The notes beneath the pieces are model-generated. The model was not told where the DNA came from. It worked only from the letters and a program-made list of their open reading frames with translations, and did no database searches. A stretch of 63,996 bases of DNA, the filler included, from a bacterium (GTDB lineage: Bacteria; UBA9089; CG2-30-40-21; SBAY01): assembly GCA_040757115.1 (NCBI GenBank). It is 6 parts of 6 records of this genome, joined end to end, with 100 filler letters (N's around TTAATTAATTAA, not from the genome) between each part and the next. Parts side by side here need not be neighbours in the genome. Positions count along the whole stretch, not along the records: positions 59,882 to 63,996 come from JBFLYA010000302.1; 5 more parts are not named here. One strand, 5' to 3'. A program made the translations under genes and the position numbers. The first letter of the stretch is position 1. The number at the start of each line of letters is the position of its first letter. Below are positions 17,603 to 63,686 of this stretch, piece after piece.

Positions 17603-17645
17603 TATTTTCCTCTGAAAATGGAAAAATGTAATTCTAACGATTTAT

Positions 17646-30810: not shown

Positions 30811-31022
30811 AATGTCAAGTAAAAAATTAAGTTTTTTTAAAAATATTTTTCCTGACTTATATCCCTAAAAAGGCACAAAAATAGTATGTTCGGATACAAG
30901 TGAATTTTTTAAATATCCAAATNNNNNNNNNNNNNNNNNNNNNNNNNNNNNNNNNNNNNNNNNNNNTTAATTAATTAANNNNNNNNNNNNNNNNNNNNNN
31001 NNNNNNNNNNNNNNNNNNNNNN

Positions 31023-38179: not shown

Positions 38180-38551
38180 GTAAGCGTTCAGGTGGTGTAA
38201 CAAAAGGAGATGTGGAGATTAAGGAGATAGGGAGATATTATTAAAAAAATTGAAATTAGTAGAAACTAATAGAAATTTATGGAAATTTGTTGTTTTCCAC
38301 AATCAANNNNNNNNNNNNNNNNNNNNNNNNNNNNNNNNNNNNNNNNNNNNTTAATTAATTAANNNNNNNNNNNNNNNNNNNNNNNNNNNNNNNNNNNNNN
38401 NNNNNNAGCTAATTGCGAAAGTTAACAGTTATATTGGCTATCTACGCAGATGTAAGCAAGGAATGGAGGAAGAACAGTCTGGTGGTCAGACACCAAGACA
38501 CCAGACACCAAGACACCAGACACCTATACCTCAGAGTATCTGAACGCTTAC
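38180..38551. mobile_element. IS66-type MITE parts on either side of an assembly gap
   Basis: Left part GTAAGCGTTCAGGTGG... to the gap; right part (AGACACC)n...TGAACGCTTAC. Confidence 0.65.
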
Positions 38552-39409: not shown

Positions 39410-42400
39410 TTATCTTATAACGGCAATCTTACCTGTTTTCTTCTCTTCCTCATTGTCTGTGATAATATAGATATAGACACCGCTTTCGAGAGGATGGCCA
39501 TAGTCATCTCTAACATCCCAGCACCAATATCCCTCAATATGCTCTACAAACCGTCTTAGACTTCCGGCGATGTCATAAATTCTTATCTTACAATCCATTG
39601 GCAATCCTTCAAAGATTATCTCTTTATCCCCGCGTTGTGGTTTAAACGGAACAGGATAAACTATGAAATTGCTTAGATTTGGTTGAACCGCATAACCCAT
39701 TAAAACATAAGTTCCCATCTTATAGATTTGTGCCTTTACCCGATTTCCAATTCGGTCAATTGTTGGTGTCGTATTTACCGGCTTCCACTGATTATTTTCA
39801 AGGATGTGTAGTCTGAGGCTCTTTTCTAAGATATTTGTGCCATCTACTATCTTATCCTGGTCATTATCATCAAAAGGAATAATCAGAAAAGTGGCATTCC
39901 CAAAGTCATAGTCGAGCAATTTTTTATCACCATCAATTATTTTAATCTCGCGGATTGAATTTCTTACACCATCCAATTTCGTATCCTGGTCATCGGCAAG
40001 ATTGGCATTTTTAATCTCCAGATTTTCAGGATTCGCATTAATCATTACATAATAATTCGTTCCATTCAAAGATTTTGGGTTAATAGTCAATATTGTATTC
40101 CCCTCAGCCGTTACCGTTCCGTAGTTATCGTCAATCAATGCGGCAAAGGTATTACTTGTCCCTCTGATGTTAGCAAAATTAGCGATAAGTTGAATATCAA
40201 GAGCCACAGTATTAATCGTTATTGTCCCCTGCCATAGCCCATCTACAAATCTACCATTAGCCGTAAGATTAATATTTTCTGGGACAGGACATAGACTAAT
40301 CTCATTATCAAAATCGACTAAATTATTATAAACATCTCTTGCCGTGATAGTCACAGGAAATGGTTTTCCGCCAACTTGATGTGGGATTACCTCAAAATTG
40401 AAATGGTCTAATTCACTCTCTGATAGAAAGATAGTCGAAGTGCCAATTATTGTTCCATTGGTAGCCTTTATGATTCCAGTTATTGGAGAAAGACCTGCCG
40501 TAAATGTTGTAGATGTTCCGATAACAGGATTTACCTGACCCAGAGATGTTGGGATAACCTCCCAATTACAGATTACATTTAAAATAGGATTATCGTAGTA
40601 GTCATACCCATTGACATAAAATTCGCAACTTGTGGTAATAGAGAGAGTTACAGTAGCAGGAGTAATAATTAAATGATGTAATTGACCTGGGATAATAGTA
40701 ATTGTCGCCATCCCAGTAATAGTCCCGGAGGTTACGGATACTGTTCCGATTAATGCCTTTGTGCCAGCAGTAAAAAGTGTCATCGAGCCTATTTGTGGGG
40801 TTAAACTCCCTATGAATTGTTCCACCTGCCATTTGTAACTCGAAATCTCCGTGAGATAATTATCAAACATATCATATCCTTTAGCCAAAAAGGAACAACT
40901 ATTTAAAATACTTACAGTTTGAGTTTGAGGAAAGATATTAATATGATGTAGTTCACCCGGGGTAATGGTGATAGAGGCAAAGGCACTCTTACCACTGGAT
41001 GTCGCCATTATCATTCCCTCGCAAACAACTATTCCAGCGGTAAATAGGGTTGATGAGCCAATAGCAGGCAAGATACTCCCACCAATAACAGACCAATTAT
41101 AACTTAGTTCTGGAATCAGGTTATGATACTTATCATACCCTTGTGCATAAAACATCAGACTTTCAGTTACTCTTATGGTAGCAAAACCTGGAGTTATCTG
41201 AATATAATCTACCGCACCAGGGATAATAGTAATTGTCGCCATCCCAGTAATAGTCCCGGAGGTTACGGATACTGTTCCGATTAATGCCTTTGTGCCAGCA
41301 GTAAAAAGTGTCCTCGAGCCTATTTGTGGGGTTAAACTCCCTATGAATTGTTCCACCTGCCATTTGTAACTCGAAATCTCCGTGAGATAATTATCAAACA
41401 TATCATATCCTTTAGCCAAAAAGGAACAGCTATTTAAAATNNNNNNNNNNNNNNNNNNNNNNNNNNNNNNNNNNNNNNNNNNNNNNNNNNNNNNNNNNNN
41501 NNNNNNNNNNNNNNNNNNNNNNNNNNNNNNNNNNNNNNNNTCGAGCCTATTTGTGGGGTTAAACTCCCTATGAATTGTTCCACCTGCCATTTGTAACTCG
41601 AAATCTCCGTGAGATAATTATCAAACATATCATATCCTTTAGCCAAAAAGGAACAGCTATTTAAAATACTTACAGTTTGAGTTTGAGGAAAGATATTAAT
41701 ATGATGTAGTTCACCCGGGGTAATGGTAATAGAGGCAAAGGCACTCTTACCACTGGATGTCGCCATTATCATTCCCTCGCAAACAACTATTCCAGCGGTA
41801 AATAGGGTTGATGAGCCAATAGCAGGCAAGATACTCCCCCCAATAACAGACCAATTATAACTTAGTTCTGGAATCAGGTTATGATACTTATCATAGCCTT
41901 GTGCATAAAACATCAGACTTTCAGTTACTCTCAGGGTAGCAAAACCTGGAGTTATCTGAATATAATCTACCGCACCTGGGATAATAGTAATTGTCGCCAT
42001 CCCAGTAATAGTCCCGGAGGTTACGGATACTGTTCCGATTAATGCCTTTGTGCCAGCAGTAAAAAGCGTCATCGAGCCTATTTGTGGGGTTAAACTCCCT
42101 ATGAATTGTTCCACCTGCCATTTGTAACTCGAAATCTCCGTGAGATAATTATTAAACATATCATATCCTTTAGCCAAAAAGGAACAACTATTTAAAATAC
42201 TTACAGTTTGAGTTTGAGGAAAGATATTAATGTGATGTAGTTCACCCGGGGTAATGGTAATAGAGGCAAAGGCACTCTTACCACTGGATGTCGCCATTAT
42301 CATTCCCTCGCAAACAATTATTCCAGCGGTAAATAGGGTTGATGAGCCAATAGCAGGCAAGATACTCCCCCCAATAACAGACCAATTATAAGTTAGTTCT

Positions 42401-45361: not shown

Positions 45362-45795
45362 GTAAGCGTTCAGGTGGTGTAACAAAAGGAGATGTGGAGA
45401 TTAAGGAGATAGGGAGATATTATTAAAAAATTGGAATTAGTAGAAACTAATAGGAAATTTATGGAAATTTGTTGTTTTCCACAATCAATTTCTACCTATT
45501 TCTATAAATTTCAATCTATTTCTATTATCTTATCTCCATATCACTCTTATCTCCTTATCCCNNNNNNNNNNNNNNNNNNNNNNNNNNNNNNNNNNNNNNN
45601 NNNNNTTAATTAATTAANNNNNNNNNNNNNNNNNNNNNNNNNNNNNNNNNNNNNNNNNNNNAGAAATTGATTGTGGGAAACAACAAATTTCCATAAATTT
45701 CTATTAGTTTCTACTAATTTCAATTTTTTTATAATAATATCTCCCTATCTCCTTAATCTCCACATCTCCTTTTGTTACACCACCTGAACGCTTAC
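45362..45795. mobile_element. Two opposite partial copies of the ~236-bp IS66-type MITE joined by a gap
   Basis: The same GTAAGCGTTCAGGTGG end occurs at both extremities. Confidence 0.75.
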
Positions 45796-46103: not shown

Positions 46104-46991
46104 TTATTCAGTTTTATCACTATCCTTGTTTAGAATAGATGGTGGTCTGTAGAGATTAAGAAGGGTATTGAGGAAAGAGGTAATCCTCTCAATAGCATCG
46201 TCTATCTGATGGATGGTTTCTTGAACCACTTCATTCTCCTTAGGAAAGGTCATCTTGAGGTAGTAAATCCCTGCCTTTACTACAGTCAAGGGGTTTTTTA
46301 TCTCATGGGCTGATTCAGAGGCAAGATGGGCGGCAAGAGCCATCTTCTCCTTTTCCATAAGCTCTTTCTCTTTCCTCATTATCTCCTTTTCCTGGTCTTT
46401 TATTTTATCTATAAAATATCCACTTATTACAGCTATCCCCAAAAAGAAGATACATCTACCAATTATAATCGAAAGAACATAGCCTCCATCCTTATAGAGA
46501 GTAATCCCTATTTTCCCTACCGGGATTGGAGGTAAAATCATAAAGTATTCAAGGGATATCAAAAGTGAGAAAAGAAGGCTGGATAAAGCAGCAATAATGA
46601 TAGCCCCTCTTTGCGAGAGAAGAAAAGAGGCACCAATGATAACAATAGTGTAATTGAGTGGGCAAATAGCCGCGGCTAAGCCACCCTGAAGATGCACCGA
46701 ATAGGTTATTGCCATAAGGTCTGCAGTTAGTGAGGAAAAGGAAAGAAGAAAAAGGCATCTTTTACTCTCTTTGCAGACTTGCTTGCTTAAAAAGAAAAGA
46801 AAGACAAGATTTAGCAATAAGATAATTGTGGTTATATAAAGGATGGGGTAATTTAAGGGGATGGTTTGGGTAGATGCCCTTAACAAAGCAAGAGCAAGAG
46901 CAAGACTATATAGAATAACCCGGATATAGATTCCATATCTGTTCCAACCAATTAATCTTTCCCTTTGTATCTCTTCAATATCTATACTCAT
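46104..46991 (-). CDS. Membrane sensor with HisKA domain but no HATPase domain
   Basis: About 6 TMs and the H-box 'AHEIKNPL'; the protein stops about 55 aa later. Start corrected to MSIDIEE. Confidence 0.7.
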   Translation of the reverse strand: MSIDIEEIQRERLIGWNRYGIYIRVILYSLALALALLRASTQTIPLNYPILYITTIILLLNLVFLFFLSKQVCKESKRCLFLLSFSSLTADLMAITYSVHLQGGLAAAICPLNYTIVIIGASFLLSQRGAIIIAALSSLLFSLLISLEYFMILPPIPVGKIGITLYKDGGYVLSIIIGRCIFFLGIAVISGYFIDKIKDQEKEIMRKEKELMEKEKMALAAHLASESAHEIKNPLTVVKAGIYYLKMTFPKENEVVQETIHQIDDAIERITSFLNTLLNLYRPPSILNKDSDKTE

Positions 46992-46996
46992 ATCTT

Positions 46997-47488
46997 TCCC
47001 CTGAAAATAGGAAGTAGAGAGTAGAAAGTAGAAAGTAAAGAAAACATCACTCCTCACGCCTATCTCCTTACCTCCCACCTTCTATCTCCTACCTACTATT
47101 TTCATCCTCATTTGTGAACCCACGGTTCATGAGCGTTTCCCCTGAAAATAAGAAAGTAGAAAGTAGAGAGTAGAAAGTAAAGAAAACATCACTCCTCACG
47201 CCTATCTCCTTACCTCCCACCTTCTATCTCCTACCACTATTTTCATCCTCATTTGTGAACCAAAGGTTCATGAGAGCCTCTCCTGAAAATGTTCGTAAGT
47301 CATTGATTTGCAAGAATTTATGAATTTTCGACTAAAAACTTTTTTTCACCACGAAGACACGAAGAATTAAACAACAAATCTTTTAATTTCCTTTAATTCT
47401 TTCTTCGTGAACTTCGTGGTCCCTTCGTGCTCTTCGTGGTTTATTTTCATCTCCCTTTGTGAGCCGCAGGTTCATGAGCGTTTCTCCT
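46997..47488 (-). repeat. ATTTTCA...TGAAAAT hairpin cassette array, locus 1
   Basis: Junction hairpins at 47098-47149, 47239-47290 and 47443-47488, half-site at 46997-47008; modules A, A, B in plus-strand order. Confidence 0.85.
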
Positions 47489-52713: not shown

Positions 52714-52813
52714 NNNNNNNNNNNNNNNNNNNNNNNNNNNNNNNNNNNNNNNNNNNNTTAATTAATTAANNNNNNNNNNNNNNNNNNNNNNNNNNNNNNN
52801 NNNNNNNNNNNNN

Positions 52814-56678: not shown

Positions 56679-59423
56679 ATGCCATTTTCTAATATTCTCC
56701 AGATAATAATTAAAGTCAGTCTCCTGATATTAATCTTATCTACCCCTTCGGTAGCGTGGCATTTTATTACCAAAACTCCTATCCATCTTATCCATTTTTT
56801 AGCCTACATTTTTAACCTGTTCATTTTATTACTCAGTTTAATAATAAAAGATATTCTAATAAATGGTCTGCCAGGATTTTGTGATAAAGTAATCCGAGCC
56901 ATGGTCATCATCTTAGTCATTATTATTCCTACTTTCTTTTGGCTTCCTCTATATGATACCTTCGATTTAGCCAAATTAACCTTGATGTATAGTTTGAATT
57001 TAGTTATTTTAGCGATGTGGTTGATAAAGGCTATTGCCTCTAAAGAAACAAAACTTATGAGGACACCACTTGATATTCCTATTTTAGCTTACTTAGCTAT
57101 CAATATTTTGGTTACTCTTACCTCAGTTAGTCCAACTATCAGTTTATTTGGTTTTTATAAACGCTATGAAGGGCTTTTTCCCATCACCAGTTATATCTTT
57201 TTATATTATGTCGTGGTTAATTTTATGAATACACCTAAATTAGTCAATAGATTAATCAAGGCAATGATTTTGACTTCGACAATAATTGCCATTTATGGTA
57301 TATTCCAACATTTCGACCATGACCCTTTTAAATGGAGTTTTTCGGCTAAAGAAAGAGTTTTTGGCACATTTGGCAACCCGGTATTTTTCTCTGCTTATCT
57401 GATTATGATTATTCCAATGGGATTAGCAATGTTACTTTTAAGAGAAAAACAACCTTATCAGTTATATCCTTTAGATATGAAAAAGGAAAAGGTAAAAAAA
57501 CTCACCTCTAAATCTAAGAAGGTAAAGAAAAAAGGACATGAAAATTCTGCTTACCAGGAGTTAATTTTAAGCTGGCAGAGGATATTTAATACCTGCAAAA
57601 ACATCTATATCGTTTTATTCCATTTCATAAGTCCGTGGTGGTATAGAATTAGTTTGATTTTACTTTTTCTCTGCTTTGTCTATACCAAAACTCGAGCCAC
57701 GATGATAGGTTTTGAAGGGGGGATATTTATATTTTCTCTGCTTATCTGTGGGGTAATTTTTTCCCTTACTTTTTACGGCACAATTCTCTTTTGTGGTATC
57801 TGTGGATTTATCATTTTCCTTAAATTTCTACCTCCTACTCATACAATTATTTTACTCTGGGGGGCAATTTCACTCGGGTTATTTTCCTTTGGTCCTTTAA
57901 TTGTTAGAACATTATTTGGTTCAAAAATGATAATTAAAAATACCAAAGATATTATTTCTATTGGTTTAGTATTAATGAGTGTTCTTCTATATTATAATCT
58001 ACACCCTGAAACTGCTGTTGTTAATCGACTCATTGGGACAATAATAAAATCAGAAACAGTACAACCTCAAGTTGTGCCTGAAAAGAAGGAATTAACGGTT
58101 GAAGATAGAATTCAACAAGCATTACCTACTCCAGAAATTAAATTTACTGGAGGAGCACAAGAAGAAAGGGCAAGCCTCTGGAAAAGGACTATAGAAATAA
58201 TCTTTAAAAATACTAAAAATTCCCTATTGGGGATAGGATTAGATACCTTACAATTAATGAATATCGGGACAGATAAAGCTCATAACGATGTTCTGGATGT
58301 AACCGTGACTCGCGGAATAATTGGTCTATTGATATATTTCTGGATATTGATAACTTATATCTGGATAAGTTTTAAAACAGCTTTTTACACCCAGGAGATA
58401 AGTAAGAAGGTATTAATTGCTTCCTTTCTTGCCTGTGAAATTGGGTATTTAATCCAAAATCAATTTAGTTTTGGGCTGGTAACTATCCTTTTATATTTCT
58501 GGATGGTGATGGGGATGACAATGGTTATTGTTAAACCTCAAACACTATCCGGGAGACAAACTATTGTTACCCCCAGAATTAAAAACCTATCTTTTCGCTG
58601 GATTCTTTGCCTGCTAATCATTGGTATCACCGTGATATTAATCTATCTTGCCTTTCGACCTTTCTTTGCTGATGCTCATTATCGAAAGGGATTTGATTTT
58701 GTAGAAAAGCATGAGTATGAAAAAGGCATCCCTGGATTAGAAAAGGCAGTTAAGACTTTTCCTTATGAAAATTGTTACTGGAAGGTATTAAATAGTATTT
58801 ATGTTGAGCGAGCAAATAATGACCCTGTGAAAAGAAAGATATGGGTGAAAAAGGCGATTGAAGGTTCAAAGTTTTTACTTACACTCATCCCTGAAGATAT
58901 GGGTTCTTATTTTAATATGGGTATGGCGTATTATTTAGATGGAGATACAACGAAGTCAATTGCTTCTTATAAAAAGGTTTTAGAAAGTGAACCAGAGGCG
59001 ATAGATACCCTTAATAACTTAGCCACTATTTATGCTAATCAAGGAGATTACAAGAAAGCCGAAGAGATGTTTAAAAAGGTATATAAGATAAGTCCTGGAC
59101 ATGCATCGGCTAAAAATAATCTTATACAACTTTATAAAATACAGGGAAGATATAAGGAGACGATGGAGTTAGATGCAGAATATGCCAAACAAATGCATAT
59201 TCAATTAACCAAAAATTATTACGAAAAAGGTGATATAGACCATGCGATTGAAGAGATTAAAAAGGTTCTTGAAATAGACCCCTCGGATATCCAATCCCGT
59301 CGCAATCTTGGCTCTTTTTACCTCTTGAAGAAAAGGTATCAAGAGGCAAAGATTGAATTTAATAATGTCCTTAAACTTGACCCAAATGATAATTATGCTA
59401 AACAAATGCTTAAAGGGCTGTAA
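56679..59423 (+). CDS. O-antigen ligase/Wzy_C-domain protein with C-terminal TPRs (paralog)
   Basis: 'KRYEGL', 'GTFGNPVF' and 'DKAHND' motifs plus TPRs; the stop TAA is supplied by the MITE end. Confidence 0.85.
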   Translation: MPFSNILQIIIKVSLLILILSTPSVAWHFITKTPIHLIHFLAYIFNLFILLLSLIIKDILINGLPGFCDKVIRAMVIILVIIIPTFFWLPLYDTFDLAKLTLMYSLNLVILAMWLIKAIASKETKLMRTPLDIPILAYLAINILVTLTSVSPTISLFGFYKRYEGLFPITSYIFLYYVVVNFMNTPKLVNRLIKAMILTSTIIAIYGIFQHFDHDPFKWSFSAKERVFGTFGNPVFFSAYLIMIIPMGLAMLLLREKQPYQLYPLDMKKEKVKKLTSKSKKVKKKGHENSAYQELILSWQRIFNTCKNIYIVLFHFISPWWYRISLILLFLCFVYTKTRATMIGFEGGIFIFSLLICGVIFSLTFYGTILFCGICGFIIFLKFLPPTHTIILLWGAISLGLFSFGPLIVRTLFGSKMIIKNTKDIISIGLVLMSVLLYYNLHPETAVVNRLIGTIIKSETVQPQVVPEKKELTVEDRIQQALPTPEIKFTGGAQEERASLWKRTIEIIFKNTKNSLLGIGLDTLQLMNIGTDKAHNDVLDVTVTRGIIGLLIYFWILITYIWISFKTAFYTQEISKKVLIASFLACEIGYLIQNQFSFGLVTILLYFWMVMGMTMVIVKPQTLSGRQTIVTPRIKNLSFRWILCLLIIGITVILIYLAFRPFFADAHYRKGFDFVEKHEYEKGIPGLEKAVKTFPYENCYWKVLNSIYVERANNDPVKRKIWVKKAIEGSKFLLTLIPEDMGSYFNMGMAYYLDGDTTKSIASYKKVLESEPEAIDTLNNLATIYANQGDYKKAEEMFKKVYKISPGHASAKNNLIQLYKIQGRYKETMELDAEYAKQMHIQLTKNYYEKGDIDHAIEEIKKVLEIDPSDIQSRRNLGSFYLLKKRYQEAKIEFNNVLKLDPNDNYAKQMLKGL

Positions 59424-59781
59424 CCGTTCAGGGGGGTAATTTACCGCAGAGACGCAGAGGAACAGAGAAGATATGGAAATAAATCAGATAACAGAAAAGA
59501 TTATTGGTGCAGCCATTGAAATACTTATGACCTGCTTGCCGAATGTTCAGCCGGCAAGCCAGATTTGTTGGTGGTGTCTTAATCTAGCATAAAGGTTAAA
59601 ATAGTGTATAGGGTTCTGCAAAATAGGATTTGAGGGAGACAACAAATAAATATCAAATATCAAATATTAAATATCAAATATAAATATCAAAATGCAAAAT
59701 TACAAATCAAATTTCAAAAAGGAAATAGCAGGGTTTCTCAAAGAGTTGGAGGAATTTGGTAATATCTTTGCTTCAAGTATT
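59420..59781. mobile_element. IS66-type GxxExxY MITE interrupted at 59570 by a GGTGGTGTCT-ended MITE
   Basis: 'MEINQITEKIIGAAIEI' relic, then sequence matching 8908-9100 up to the gap. Confidence 0.8.
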
Positions 59782-60054
59782 NNNNNNNNNNNNNNNNNNN
59801 NNNNNNNNNNNNNNNNNNNNNNNNNTTAATTAATTAANNNNNNNNNNNNNNNNNNNNNNNNNNNNNNNNNNNNNNNNNNNNAAGCATTTTTTAAAAAAAA
59901 TAATAAAATTTTTTAATAATACTCGTATGCACACTTTTAAGGTCTAAAATTTGCCTATCCCCTTGATTATTAAAAGGTTATCCCTTCTTTATAGGCTCTT
60001 TTTGAGGGGAAGTTCCGTTAGAAGTAGCATAAAATTTACGAAAGTCCAGATTCA

Positions 60055-60984
60055 CTAACTCGCTAATTTAATTTCCTGCCAGGAATATAAAATTCCATCC
60101 ATTAATGAAACTTTAGGTTGCCAACATAGTTCTTGTTTAGCTCGTTTAATATCAAGAACATTAATTGGGACATCATAAGGACGACCCTGTTTATACTGAA
60201 TCTCAAATTCTTTTCCGGTAACCTTTCTTATTATGTTTAACAATTCATTAAGTGAAGTTCCTTTACCATCGCCAATATTAAAAATTTTATTTTTGGTTTG
60301 CATCTCACAAGAAAGTATAAATGCCTCCACTACATCATCAATATAGATATAATCGCGAACTACCGTTCCATCACCCCAGATGATAATAGGTTCTTTGTTC
60401 TTTACTTTATTAAGGAAAACATCTATTGCTCCTTGTTGCCGAAATGTGTTAAGTCTGCCACCATAAAAATTGGAAGTGCGTAAAATAACATAATCTAACT
60501 TATAGAGATGATGATACATATAAAGATATTTTTCTATTGTAAGTTTAGTAATACCATAGGAACATAAAGGATATGTCGGATGTAACTCTGGAATTGGTAA
60601 AGTTTGGGGAATACCATAGACAGTACCTCCTGAGGAAGAGAATATAATTTTTTTAATCTTTTGTTTTCTACAGACTTCAAACAATTGGATTGAGCCTATA
60701 ACATTACTTTTAAGGTCATAGGCAATGTCTTCCATCGAATCCTGAGGGACTACTGTACAGGCTAAATGGAATACAAAGTCCACATCGATAACCGCAGATT
60801 GGATGACAGAAGGCTTAGTAAAATCGCCTTTTATTAACTTAATCTTATCCAGGAATGGAGTTAAATCAGGATATTCTTTATGAGGTAGCTCTAATATTCT
60901 CACTTTATAGTTTTTTTCTAAAAGCCTTTTGGTTAAGTGTGATCCTAAGAAACCGCCTCCTCCAATAATTAAACATTCATTCAT
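60055..60984 (-). CDS. NAD-dependent epimerase/dehydratase
   Basis: 'GGGGFLG', 'SSGGTVYG' and YxxxK (YGITK) motifs; start corrected to MNECLI. Confidence 0.9.
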   Translation of the reverse strand: MNECLIIGGGGFLGSHLTKRLLEKNYKVRILELPHKEYPDLTPFLDKIKLIKGDFTKPSVIQSAVIDVDFVFHLACTVVPQDSMEDIAYDLKSNVIGSIQLFEVCRKQKIKKIIFSSSGGTVYGIPQTLPIPELHPTYPLCSYGITKLTIEKYLYMYHHLYKLDYVILRTSNFYGGRLNTFRQQGAIDVFLNKVKNKEPIIIWGDGTVVRDYIYIDDVVEAFILSCEMQTKNKIFNIGDGKGTSLNELLNIIRKVTGKEFEIQYKQGRPYDVPINVLDIKRAKQELCWQPKVSLMDGILYSWQEIKLAS

Positions 60985-60992
60985 CAGATAAT

Positions 60993-61607
60993 TCTCCTGA
61001 AAATGTCTATAAGTCATTGATTTGCAAGAACGTACAAATTTCGACTAAAAAGCTTTTTCCCCACCACGAAGACACGAAGAATTAAACAACAAATCTCTTA
61101 ATTTCCTTTAATTCTTTCTTCGTGAACTTCGTGGTTCCTTCGTGCTCTTCGTGGTTTATTTTCATCTCCCTTTGTGAGCCGCAGGTTCATGAGTGTTCTT
61201 CTGAAAATAGGAAGTAGAAAGTAGAGAGTAGAAAGTAGAAAGTAAAGAAAACATCACTCCTCACGCCTATCTCCTTACCTCCCACCTTCTATCTCCTACC
61301 CCTATTTTCATCCTCCTTTGTGTCCACCCTGTGGACATGTCCGTTTCTCCTGAAAATAGTTTTTAGCCACAGATAAACGCAGAAGGACACAGATTGATTT
61401 AGCCACTGAATACACGAAAACTCACTGATAAATTATTATAGAAGTTAAGAGGCTAAGAAGATAAGAAGTTAAGATTCTTAAAAGCAAATTAACCTCTCAT
61501 CTTCTCATCTTCTCAACTTCTTATCCTCTTATCCTTCAGTGTTTTCAGTGACTTCAGTGGCTATTTTCATTTCTCCTCTGCGAGTTGCTGAGTTATGACT
61601 GCTTCTG
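60993..61607 (-). repeat. ATTTTCA...TGAAAAT hairpin cassette array, locus 2
   Basis: Half-site at 60993-61004; junctions at 61158-61208, 61304-61357 and 61563-61607 (degenerate); modules B, A, C in plus-strand order. Confidence 0.85.
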
Positions 61608-61608
61608 C

Positions 61609-62796
61609 TCATACAGATTCAGATTTTAAAAGATGGATTTTCTTATAAATTTCTTCAGTTTGACGAGCTACCTTTTCCCATGAATATCCTTCAGCCGTCC
61701 GACGGGCATTTTCTCCCATTTGTTTTATACAGTGTTCATTTTCGAGGAAGAAACTTATTTTTTGAGCAATATCAAGTGCATCTCTCTGAATAAAAAATCC
61801 ATTGTAACCATCCTCAATTAATTCTTCAGTTCCACTAACTTTTGTAGCTACTATAGGCAATCCAGATGCTATAGCTTCCAATGTAGCTAATGAAAATGCT
61901 TCGTAGAGCGTTGGAAATACAAAAATATCAGATGCGGCGTAATATCTTTTAAGGGGAGTTGGTTGAAGAAATATTATCTGATGAGCAACCTTTAACTTTT
62001 CTGATAGAAATACATAAGGTTTTATTTTATCTCTACCAATGACAATAAGTTTTACCCGCTCACTTTTAATCAAAGGAAGTGCTTCAATAATATATTTTAA
62101 TCCTTTCCTTTTAAACTCATAGGCTATAAATATGAGAACCAAATCGTCTTTTTTAATATTAAGTTCTTTCCTGACTTCATCTCTAAATTCTTCCCTATTT
62201 TTAGGATTAAATTCATTAATATCAACTCCATTAGGAATAACTATTATATTTTCTTCTGGAGTTTTATAATCGGCTATAATTTCTCTCTTTATCCATTCAG
62301 TAGGTGAAATTATTATTACATTTTTCTTACTCCCTCGTCGTTGATATGAAAATTTCTCTATTAAAAAGACGATTAAGTTTAGCGGATTTAAGATAGTATT
62401 TTTTAAATAATTATAAGTTCCCCACCCACTATTTCTGGCAACTCTGACAGCAGTTTTATGACTACTTTGTGAAGTATATACATCAAAAGGTATGAAGCAA
62501 TCACCATAGGAATGAACAATATCAAAGTTTGATGGTCTAATTTTCAATTTACTCATTAAGACAAAACTATATACCTGTAATATGGTGGCTAAACCTGCTT
62601 TCTTTCGTTGCAAAAAGAAGTTACCTTTCAACATTGGCACTTTATGGAAGATAATTTTATCACTCGAGATATCTTGCCATGAGTTAGCGAATATATGGAC
62701 CTCATGTGTATGGCTGAATATCTCGGCTAATTCTGCTACACATCGTGAAATTCCCCCTTTCTTATTGCATGTTCTTGTAATAAAAGCAATTTTCAT
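61609..62796 (-). CDS. Glycosyltransferase family 4
   Basis: 'IPNGVD', 'KGL' and 'DIFVFPT.YEAF....LEA.ASGLP' motifs. Confidence 0.9.
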   Translation of the reverse strand: MKIAFITRTCNKKGGISRCVAELAEIFSHTHEVHIFANSWQDISSDKIIFHKVPMLKGNFFLQRKKAGLATILQVYSFVLMSKLKIRPSNFDIVHSYGDCFIPFDVYTSQSSHKTAVRVARNSGWGTYNYLKNTILNPLNLIVFLIEKFSYQRRGSKKNVIIISPTEWIKREIIADYKTPEENIIVIPNGVDINEFNPKNREEFRDEVRKELNIKKDDLVLIFIAYEFKRKGLKYIIEALPLIKSERVKLIVIGRDKIKPYVFLSEKLKVAHQIIFLQPTPLKRYYAASDIFVFPTLYEAFSLATLEAIASGLPIVATKVSGTEELIEDGYNGFFIQRDALDIAQKISFFLENEHCIKQMGENARRTAEGYSWEKVARQTEEIYKKIHLLKSESV

Positions 62797-63235: not shown

Positions 63236-63281
63236 AATTTGCTTTTTTGAATGTTCCTGAGCCTGTCAGGAACAGGCTTTG

Positions 63282-63356
63282 GGTATTATATCCATTTGTG
63301 CCCATTGTGAGAATATTCTACCAGAAATTTTATCCTTTGTCAACAAAAAATTCGGT
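63282..63356 (-). promoter_or_regulatory. Duplicated promoter module (copy 2)
   Basis: TTGACA-17-TAGAAT; similar to 8836-8910. Confidence 0.6.
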
Positions 63357-63435
63357 TCTTTTGAAAATGGACATTGCCAATAGTGATTTTGGACACACTT
63401 ATCCTACGGAAGGTAATTGGAAGGTCATAAAAGAA

Positions 63436-63686
63436 TAGGGTTCTGCAAAATAGGATTTGGGGGAGATAACTGAGAGTTAGACCTGAAATTAAATCAAAAA
63501 TCAAATATCAAAATGCAAAATTACAAATCAAATTTCAAGTTGATAGTTGATAGTTTATAGTTGATAGTTGAAGGACTATAGACTATAAACTATAAACGAG
63601 TTTTGCATTTTGCTCTTTGGAGGAAATCCCTTTTGGACACCAAATCTGCATAGATTTCACTATTAGAGTTATTTTCAGACACCACC
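63436..63686. mobile_element. Partial GGTGGTGTCT-family MITE (heptamer interior, four-helix relic deleted)
   Basis: Matches 8946-9357 with internal deletions; right end AGACACCACC. Confidence 0.7.

Follow-up and report, generated by a model that had tools for sequence, protein, structure and literature searches.

Stacked hairpin repeats at Shine-Dalgarno sequences of a groundwater bacterium are likely small mobile units that supply a replacement ribosome-binding site

Results

Two hairpin arrays with a common plan

The DNA analysed here (the window, 63,996 nucleotides with filler included, joined from six parts of assembly GCA_040757115.1) comes from a groundwater bacterium and contains two arrays of hairpin repeats, each ending a few nucleotides upstream of a start codon. 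Both arrays are read on the minus strand, on which their flanking genes also lie. Array 1 (46997-47488) precedes a sensor gene, and array 2 (60993-61606) stands between a glycosyltransferase group 1 (GT4) gene and a gene for a NAD-dependent epimerase/dehydratase. A preliminary description of this DNA had proposed that such arrays integrate at Shine-Dalgarno (SD) sequences; on direct reading the sequence and coordinates of both arrays were as it had described, and Pfam confirmed its naming of the GT4, epimerase and sensor genes.

Direct reading also showed that the arrays share one unit plan, with three units apiece. Each unit consists of a purine core (AGGAGA, AGGGGA or AGAAGA), a module of about 45 nt that we call S, of the form AAC-N3-CATG, short stem-loop, CACAAAGGAGGATGAAAAT, and a long variable hairpin, L, which opens with TGAAAATAG and closes with CTATTTTC, its outer ends being TGAAAAT...ATTTTCA. 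L is thus bounded by 7-9 nt inverted ends, TGAAAAT(AG)...(CT)ATTTTCA, whereas the whole unit of core, S and L has none, and arrays open with core and S, lacking ATTTTC at their left end. The window has L hairpins of three types: type A, whose 5' arm is rich in purines and whose 3' arm carries CTACTNT heptamers, type B, built on CACGAAG heptamers, and type C, of 219 nt.

Array 2 begins 2 nt (GC) past the stop codon TGA (61611-61609) of the GT4 gene (61609-62796; PF00534, PF13439). Its left end is a degenerate core, AGAAGC (61606-61601), followed by what by-eye comparison with the S consensus indicates to be a decayed S-like module ending in GAAATGAAAATAG (core and module, 61561-61606). The L hairpin of type C, running from TGAAAATAG to CTATTTTC (61352-61569), has a predicted folding energy of -75.7 kcal/mol on the sense and -59.6 kcal/mol on the antisense strand, and leads through the junction ATTTTC|AGGAGA (61357-61346) into a core AGGAGA and an S module with the hairpin GTCCAC/GTGGAC, ending in GGAGGATGAAAATA (61303-61351). 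An L hairpin of type A follows (61203-61311; -48.6 sense, -20.8 antisense), then the junction ATTTTC|AGAAGA (61208-61197) and a core AGAAGA with an S module whose hairpin is TGAACC/GGCTCA (61157-61202), both S modules having been delimited by reading and S alignment. The last hairpin, of type B as judged by reading and folding (60999-61165), ends in ACATTTTC and joins the terminal core at ATTTTC|AGGAGA (61004-60993). This core (60998-60993), an 8-nt spacer ATTATCTG and the ATG (60984-60982) form the right end of the array (60982-60998), and the epimerase gene of 309 aa (60055-60984; PF01370) begins there.

Array 1 opens in otherwise unique intergenic DNA with GATATCGAA|AGGAGA|AACGCTCATG, its core starting at 47488. 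Reading and folding resolved it into a core AGGAGA, S with an L hairpin of type B, two further S modules each with type A, and a terminal core AGGGGA, the junctions lying at 47290-47279, 47149-47138 and 47008-46997. After the last of these, 5 nt (AAGAT) lead to the ATG (46991-46989) of the sensor gene (46104-46996 with the spacer), in which Pfam recognised HisKA and a PilS-like membrane domain. The sensor reading frame (46104-46991) ends at residue 295 without an ATPase domain and may be split or truncated.

For both genes, mechanical listing of open reading frames (ORFs) gives longer frames with false upstream starts within the arrays; comparison with orthologues, including alignment of the epimerase with its G005 and G002 counterparts, places the real starts at the ATGs adjoining the last cores. 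The terminal core at 60998-60993 is therefore probably the working ribosome-binding site (RBS) of the epimerase gene. In the window, the junction pattern ATTTTCAGRRGA matches 7 times where 0.19 matches are expected, and none of 100 shuffles had as many as 7. Six of the 7 lie inside the two arrays, and the seventh (17608) sits before a different repeat.

Structure of the S module and L hairpins

Pairing of the stem reaches 93.6% across 66 aligned, distinct S modules, and three of the stem's pairs have compensatory changes, in 27, 30 and 11 sequences, among stems as varied as TGAACC, TGCCCC, TGAGTC and TGTCCAC. This covariation shows that the S hairpin is maintained, although the copies are related and the changes are not independent events. 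S also resembles a decoy translation start, with core, 7 nt and ATG in 68 of 76 copies. The frame of this mini-ORF past the hairpin shifts among copies, giving ORFs of 3-76 codons that stop inside L, and a conserved peptide was rejected because of this variation in frame.

The L hairpins range from 69 to 260 nt and have unrelated interiors between constant ends. Type A is the most abundant in G001, the genome nearest to the window, with 26 of the 72 distinct hairpins sampled. Its 26 copies have 8.3 G-U pairs on the sense against 1.8 on the antisense strand, with folding energies of -38 and -22 kcal/mol, and the entire array 2 folds at -214.9 sense against -172.4 antisense. Folding predictions of this kind suggest that type A, at least, is kept as an RNA structure of the leader while being a poor DNA palindrome. 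No Rfam 15 family matched the window at its gathering score. With lax thresholds, the region 60900-61700 gave sub-threshold matches only, mostly to microRNA precursors and a few small RNAs, which we take to reflect long hairpins and nothing more specific.

Abundance and taxonomic range

Genome-wide counts were made in G001, which shares 31% of sampled 31-mers with the window, and in G003, from another genus of the same family, in place of the window's own genome. The pattern ATTTTCAGRRGA has 247 matches in G001 against 3 for a reversed control, and 48 against 2 in G003. The 38 relatives searched besides these two have 0-19 matches; G002, G004 and G005, of the same family, have 5-8. The same S and L types recur before unrelated genes at 80-100% identity. 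The two window arrays belong to a large, lineage-restricted family of small and probably mobile elements, hundreds in number.

Nine loci were first found filled in G001, and eight of these have no junction in G003, despite the 48 junctions that G003 has elsewhere; the two lineages were evidently colonised separately. Differences exist between closer relatives too: the G001 orthologue of array 1 agrees with it in the host joint and in the first two units and differs from the third unit on, so that arrays change between close relatives. No orthologue of the GT4/epimerase pair was found in G001, and the array 2 locus is not comparable there. A metagenome scan with the epimerase returned only distant relatives (at most 37% identity) and no empty-site strains. 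Among sequencing runs, none of RNA was found to contain the region, and three of DNA, searched as contigs, gave no array-free variant of the array 2 locus and no bridging contig. In the run containing the window, the type-A hairpin (61213-61313) had a summed contig word depth of 97,384 against 280 on the flanking genes, which is no copy number but does show how common this hairpin is in that sample.

Comparison with array-free relatives

Thirteen loci were compared with family members that lack the array, with gene names confirmed by Pfam. At array 2 and 12 more loci, the array lies at or within a few nucleotides of the position where the relatives have a plain SD followed by ATG, as the preliminary description had anticipated for empty sites. 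It had also argued that removal of array 2 would leave a tight GT4/SD/epimerase junction, and this is what G005 and G002 contain: the GT4 gene adjoins the epimerase gene with no array and with the SD inside the last GT4 codons, the GT4 stop lying 7 nt before the epimerase ATG in G005 and overlapping it in G002.

The breakpoint is resolved nearly to the nucleotide upstream of pyrD. There, relatives read AATTGGAGAAAAGA-ATG (...ACAATTGGAGAAAAGA-ATG in G002, ...AATTGGAGAAAAAG-ATG in G005), and G001 reads ...AATTGGAGA|AACGCTCATG...S...L(A)...ATTTTC|AGGAGA|AAGA-ATG. The host SD variant TTGGAGA stands on the left and the element-type CAGGAGA on the right, and the joint falls somewhere within the shared GGAGAAA; G003 has a different L type at the same SD. 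Between atpF and atpH, three relatives have GATAAGGAGA-cattacatta-ATG, with the atpF stop overlapping the ATG, and G001 has GACCAGCAGA|ACGCTCATG...array...ATTTTC|AGGAGA-agataccaca-ATG. Here the left break immediately follows the ancestral AAGGAGA, and G001 retains the unusual distance of 10 nt to the ATG. The last five atpF codons (KETLH in relatives) have become fourteen in G001 (L033), QQNAHAHRKWHKGG, reading into the S module; array insertion thus rewrote the C-terminus of ATP synthase subunit b in this genome. The pmbA-like gene is filled in G003 only, as AATTGC-AGGAGA|unit|AGAGGA-ATA-ATG, against AATTGGAGG(T)AAATA-ATG in four relatives. Among the other loci, proC has the core in the SD position with 4-nt spacing in both filled and empty forms, and leuA has a lone type-A hairpin between AGGAGGA and AGGAGA.

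These comparisons also bear on which side owns the core. Left and right cores are unequal at pyrD (TTGGAGA and CAGGAGA) and at the pmbA-like gene (AGGAGA and AGAGGA). In G003, the L type ending ...GTGTAGGTATTTTC is followed by AGAGGA in all five of its copies, before five different sequences, and other L types carry AGGAGA. Since the cores are unequal and the right core tracks the L type, the right core is element-borne and no target duplication. Left-boundary cores are often imperfect (TTTGAGA, CAGAGA, TGGAAA, TGGAGA, AGGCGA), which is what a variety of host SDs would give. Read most simply, a unit would enter at the 3' edge of, or within, a host GGAG(A), and the host SD would then stay on the left and the unit's own core come to lie on the right. 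The earlier proposal of a crossover inside an SD-like core that regenerates the ribosome-binding site consequently holds in that the joint is in or at the SD, and has to be modified in that the new site is a copy brought by the element.

Position of array ends relative to start codons

We examined 118 junctions, 7 from the window and 111 from G001. A further S module follows in 55 of them, a start codon in 34 and something else in 29. In the 34, the start lies 3-19 nt away and opens an ORF of at least 60 aa, and the spacing is 3-8 nt in 25, which bears out the peak of distances expected in the preliminary description. All junctions of an array are on one strand.

The junctions form 73 clusters, and setting aside 8 chance-like singletons without a repeated arm leaves 65 arrays; delimiting arrays by shared 12-mers was abandoned, since AT-rich DNA made it far too noisy. 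By automated count, 28 of the 65 arrays end 2-21 nt before a co-oriented start of an ORF of at least 80 aa, 6 run off the contig end and 31 were scored as 'other' or 'S module'. Row-by-row reading added three gene starts that the script had missed (a birA-like gene at 15 nt, L051 at 5 nt and rpmI, with 66 aa), giving 31 of 65, and about 17 of the 31 'other' clusters continue into repeat units whose junction departs from the strict pattern. As a null, the start criterion was applied to the 162,564 non-coding positions and strands that these loci contain, of which 4.5% satisfy it. This null replaces two discarded controls, one inflated by starts within genes and the other relying on an upstream-stop rule that removed true cases. 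Random placement relative to start codons, which would have told against docking at the SD, is therefore not what was found (28-31 of 65 arrays at a gene start against 4.5%), and the pattern repeats in G003, where 12 of 48 junctions precede a gene start (11 of them at 2-7 nt) and 15 precede S modules.

The picture was similar in a search made without presupposing the core. CTACTTCCTTATTTTC has 16 copies in G001, and behind every one comes a purine hexamer, 9 of these having an ATG in reach and 5 leading into S modules; the search covered these 16 copies, and not the commoner CTACTTCCTATTTTC.

Other repeats in the window and in relatives

The seventh window junction, ATTTTC|AGAGGA at 17608-17619 (minus strand), comes after a promoter-like TTGACG-N17-TATAAT and leads via AAATAG directly into the repeat GTAACCGTTCACCGCAGAGACACAGAGACGCAGAG, with no S module; the same repeat is found behind junctions in G001 (L048, L026, L032). 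Just downstream of the epimerase gene, at 59419-59569 (and 59560-59790), lies a different repeat of about 150 nt, of which at least 35 copies with 86-98% identity are scattered over G001 contigs, making it a second abundant family of small repeats. The intergenic DNA upstream of the GT4 gene (63278-63597) consists of several short repeat pieces, each matching dozens of G001 contigs at 80-98% identity. The window also contains eleven runs of N (within 30923-31022, 38307-38406, 41441-41540, 45562-45661, 52714-52813 and 59782-59881), mostly paired 44s that are 12 bases apart, several of them in intergenic repeat regions near the arrays.

A multi-copy sequence found behind one S type in G001 was set aside, as its second part belongs to an unrelated element of high copy number, inserted at many AT-rich sites, and is the left end of that element. 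This left end, GAGGGTTGGACCTATTAAC..., is present at 13 or more G001 contig ends, among them that in L079 (4523-4644; G001:C255), with the interior not assembled. Each left end follows a different AT-rich flank and is unrelated to the S and L units. Within G001:C95 there is one diverged copy (88%), located upstream of a repeat-rich gene resembling those for secreted proteins.

In relatives poor in the elements described here, AAAACGGTTACAATTGGAG(A/G) forms the end of another repeat, at the SD of both pyrD in G002 (L200) and the pmbA-like gene in G004 (L195), and proC and gltX have repeats of the GAACCGT type abutting their SD. Further repeat families of this bacterial family may dock at ribosome-binding sites as well.

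Discussion

Our results make it likely that each array is a stack of small mobile units that are non-autonomous, dock on the SD sequences of genes and supply a replacement SD. According to this model, units would enter in one orientation, that of the downstream gene, at the SD of that gene, with the joint inside or at the 3' edge of the GGAG(A) common to host and element. The host SD would stay upstream and become the core of the first S module, and the terminal ATTTTC-AGGRGA of the element would land at about the native distance from the start codon and form a new ribosome-binding site. Each insertion would recreate the target so that more units could enter, and unequal recombination could add units too; either insertion-by-insertion growth or unequal recombination would yield the head-to-tail arrays. 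The units presumably move by a core-specific recombination or insertion step. With the terminal core used as SD, as the spacing to the start codon suggests, the gene behind an array can probably still be translated. The hairpins would be transcribed within the mRNA leader or the intercistronic spacer, where they may affect mRNA stability, processing or translation, and the commonest L type, at least, appears shaped to fold as sense-strand RNA. A special link to surface-glycan genes, which had been suggested from the neighbours of the window arrays, is unsupported, the targets being housekeeping genes of all kinds.

Several observations weigh against this model or limit its reach. At rpmI, plsY and the gltD-like gene, three of the 13 loci, a conserved native SD (e.g. 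AAAGGAGGATTAnTA-ATG) survives 2-4 nt downstream of the terminal core; there the core would be an extra one, the joint lying beside the SD and not inside it. At the mcsB-like gene the core is 4 nt nearer to the ATG than the native SD, the comparisons at gltX and argH are ambiguous, and the HIT gene has an orthologue in G003 only, itself with a junction-like sequence. Because the relatives share 64-90% protein identity, most breakpoints are placed only within a few nucleotides. By our own reading, about 11 of about 42 resolved array ends have no start codon nearby. All comparison genomes are metagenome bins in fragments, with breaks at repeats (770 contigs and 5% contamination for G001), and the 58 G001 regions that were read, from the first 100 listed matches and a few further contigs, hold 111 of its 247 junctions. 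Strand asymmetry of folding is strong for type A but weak overall: the sense strand gives the stabler fold in 59 of 75 distinct L hairpins, and by cluster in only 15 of 22. Finally, no recombinase or transposase could be tied to the units, the family searched being the Y1 transposases; two of the nine Y1_Tnp loci of G001 were inspected (L151 and L155), and they showed neither junctions nor S modules.

Part of this evidence would also fit untargeted intergenic insertion followed by selection, with units that carry an outward ribosome-binding site like Neisseria REP2 and copies that persist, or are noticed, when they lie next to a start. The element-borne right core (AGAGGA in five of five copies of one L type), the array ends that keep a core with no start codon near, and the native SD surviving downstream at three loci all agree with it. 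However, landing farther up the leader should do no more harm, yet 28-31 of the 65 arrays end 2-21 nt from a start against the 4.5% of the null, the left breakpoints and the host SD fall together at pyrD, atpH and the pmbA-like gene, and the overwriting of the last atpF codons is not something that selection alone would favour. We therefore regard this explanation as unlikely. A non-mobile origin, in which local leader or attenuator structures grew by heptamer slippage and shared motifs arose by convergent selection for a good RBS context, is already strongly disfavoured and seems to us scarcely credible. It would account for L arms made of tandem heptamers and for the heptamer-built hairpins that relatives without a junction also have between the same genes, e.g. 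infC-rpmI, but not for S and L types that recur at 80-100% identity before unrelated genes, for the different unit content of the window and G001 at the orthologous array 1 locus, or for most loci being empty in sister genera.

Other alternatives accept mobility and assign it to known machinery. REP sequences and their BIME mosaics are abundant extragenic palindromes that occur in mosaic clusters and are transcribed with neighbouring genes. The arrays share with them their abundance, their clustering and, probably, co-transcription with neighbours; BIME units alternate in orientation, whereas those described here all have one, and docking at an SD is, to our knowledge, not a property of REP sequences. 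In single-strand transposition of the IS200/IS605 or REP/RAYT type, a Y1 transposase would insert 3' of GGAGA, guided by the S hairpin in subterminal position, and a right end that mimics the target would lead to arrays. Such a route would predict several features of the arrays: a host motif kept at the left end and a motif of the element at the right, insertion 3' of a fixed short target with no duplication (at pyrD, atpH and the pmbA-like gene), strict orientation, a hairpin about 10 nt from the left end, and tandem stacking. G001 has nine matches to Y1_Tnp. Against it, the two Y1 loci inspected showed no link to the units, and Y1 counts do not track the units across genomes (9 Y1 and 5 junctions in G004; 2 fragmentary Y1 and 48 junctions in G003). 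The S stems vary widely within one genome, unlike the fixed hairpins read by one transposase, and S-like hairpins are near the left end only, the right ends being unrelated L hairpins; with such stems, and no hairpin to match at the right end, the units are unlikely to belong to IS200/IS605. On balance, this route appears slightly less probable still than untargeted insertion. The unequal left and right cores at pyrD and the pmbA-like gene, with no target-site duplication, also separate the units from MITEs, the miniature inverted-repeat transposable elements.

Integron attC arrays are made of variable hairpin sites placed head to tail, with conserved inverted ends and a short core, and are served by an integrase and an attI platform. 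By analogy, the L hairpins, 69-260 nt long with unrelated interiors and constant TGAAAAT...ATTTTCA ends, could be attC-like sites, crossed by a tyrosine recombinase with secondary sites resembling an SD, and the units would be tiny cassettes. The head-to-tail order, the constant crossover core and a joint inside a short shared core are common to both. The core, however, is AGGRGA and not GTTRRRY, the arrays are spread over hundreds of scattered gene starts and not gathered at one platform, and no integrase, attI or cassette ORF was seen, though no search was aimed at them. Structure-specific recombination of this integron-like kind is accordingly very improbable in our view.

Docking of stacked units on the SD thus remains the explanation that we favour, and it can be set beside repeats that are already known to home to translation start signals. 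Mycobacterial interspersed repetitive units (MIRUs) are reported to settle on start codons, where an internal ORF of the repeat is coupled to the gene by a -4 nt overlap, with little effect on expression (PMC12548453). As described there, they resemble the present units in being short mobile intergenic repeats, often in tandem and within operons, that insert in the sense orientation at translation start signals and are thought to spare expression; they differ in that the dock here is the SD core and not the start codon and in that the units here carry long hairpins. The S mini-ORF, moreover, has no conserved frame, ends inside the next hairpin and does not overlap the gene start. Neisseria REP2 is a single unit of 120-150 bp with about 25 copies that brings a promoter, RBS and ATG (PMC3184786). 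As described there, REP2 and the Borrelia repeats IR-A and IR-B are similar to our units in lacking terminal inverted repeats, having internal stem-loops, lying directly upstream of genes and supplying an RBS. Unlike REP2 as portrayed there, the units described here stack in arrays, number hundreds, use the host ATG and appear to dock, at the level of nucleotides, on an existing SD. The TAACTGA repeats of marine Beggiatoaceae are heptamers in forward orientation, located a few nucleotides before starts over the expected RBS (PMC4679880). They too are heptamer-based intergenic repeats that pile up in forward orientation near start codons over the RBS, but the heptamers here form hairpin arms and each unit here ends in a canonical SD. 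No description of SD-docking arrays of S and L hairpins that replace the SD was found in the full text of open-access papers, and one may exist elsewhere; nor do the cited accounts of these three cases contain one.

A bolder view, which we offer tentatively and hold to be possible rather than probable, is that the ribosome-binding site serves as attachment site for previously undescribed mobile cassettes of RNA hairpins. Machinery that recognises GGAG would swap in a unit that ends in an SD, and hundreds of genes would gain leader hairpins that are used or tolerated. Such machinery might be a structure-reading recombinase or an RNA-guided enzyme with a guide resembling an anti-SD sequence.

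Small bacterial repeats are usually described simply as 'intergenic'; for these units the landing site is resolved to a few nucleotides and is the SD. This points to an insertion mechanism with a target of 5-7 nt that is common to most genes. The arrays also break metagenome assemblies and mislead the calling of start codons. The several dozen gene starts that carry the same modules in each of two genomes form a natural set for the study of leader structure and translation, and hairpins that fold only as RNA, owing to their G-U pairs, suggest how long palindromes are carried without DNA instability. For the bacteria themselves, a substitute SD would explain how hundreds of copies can lie before essential genes (gltX, atpH, rpmI, pyrD, leuA) and within tight operons without killing the host.

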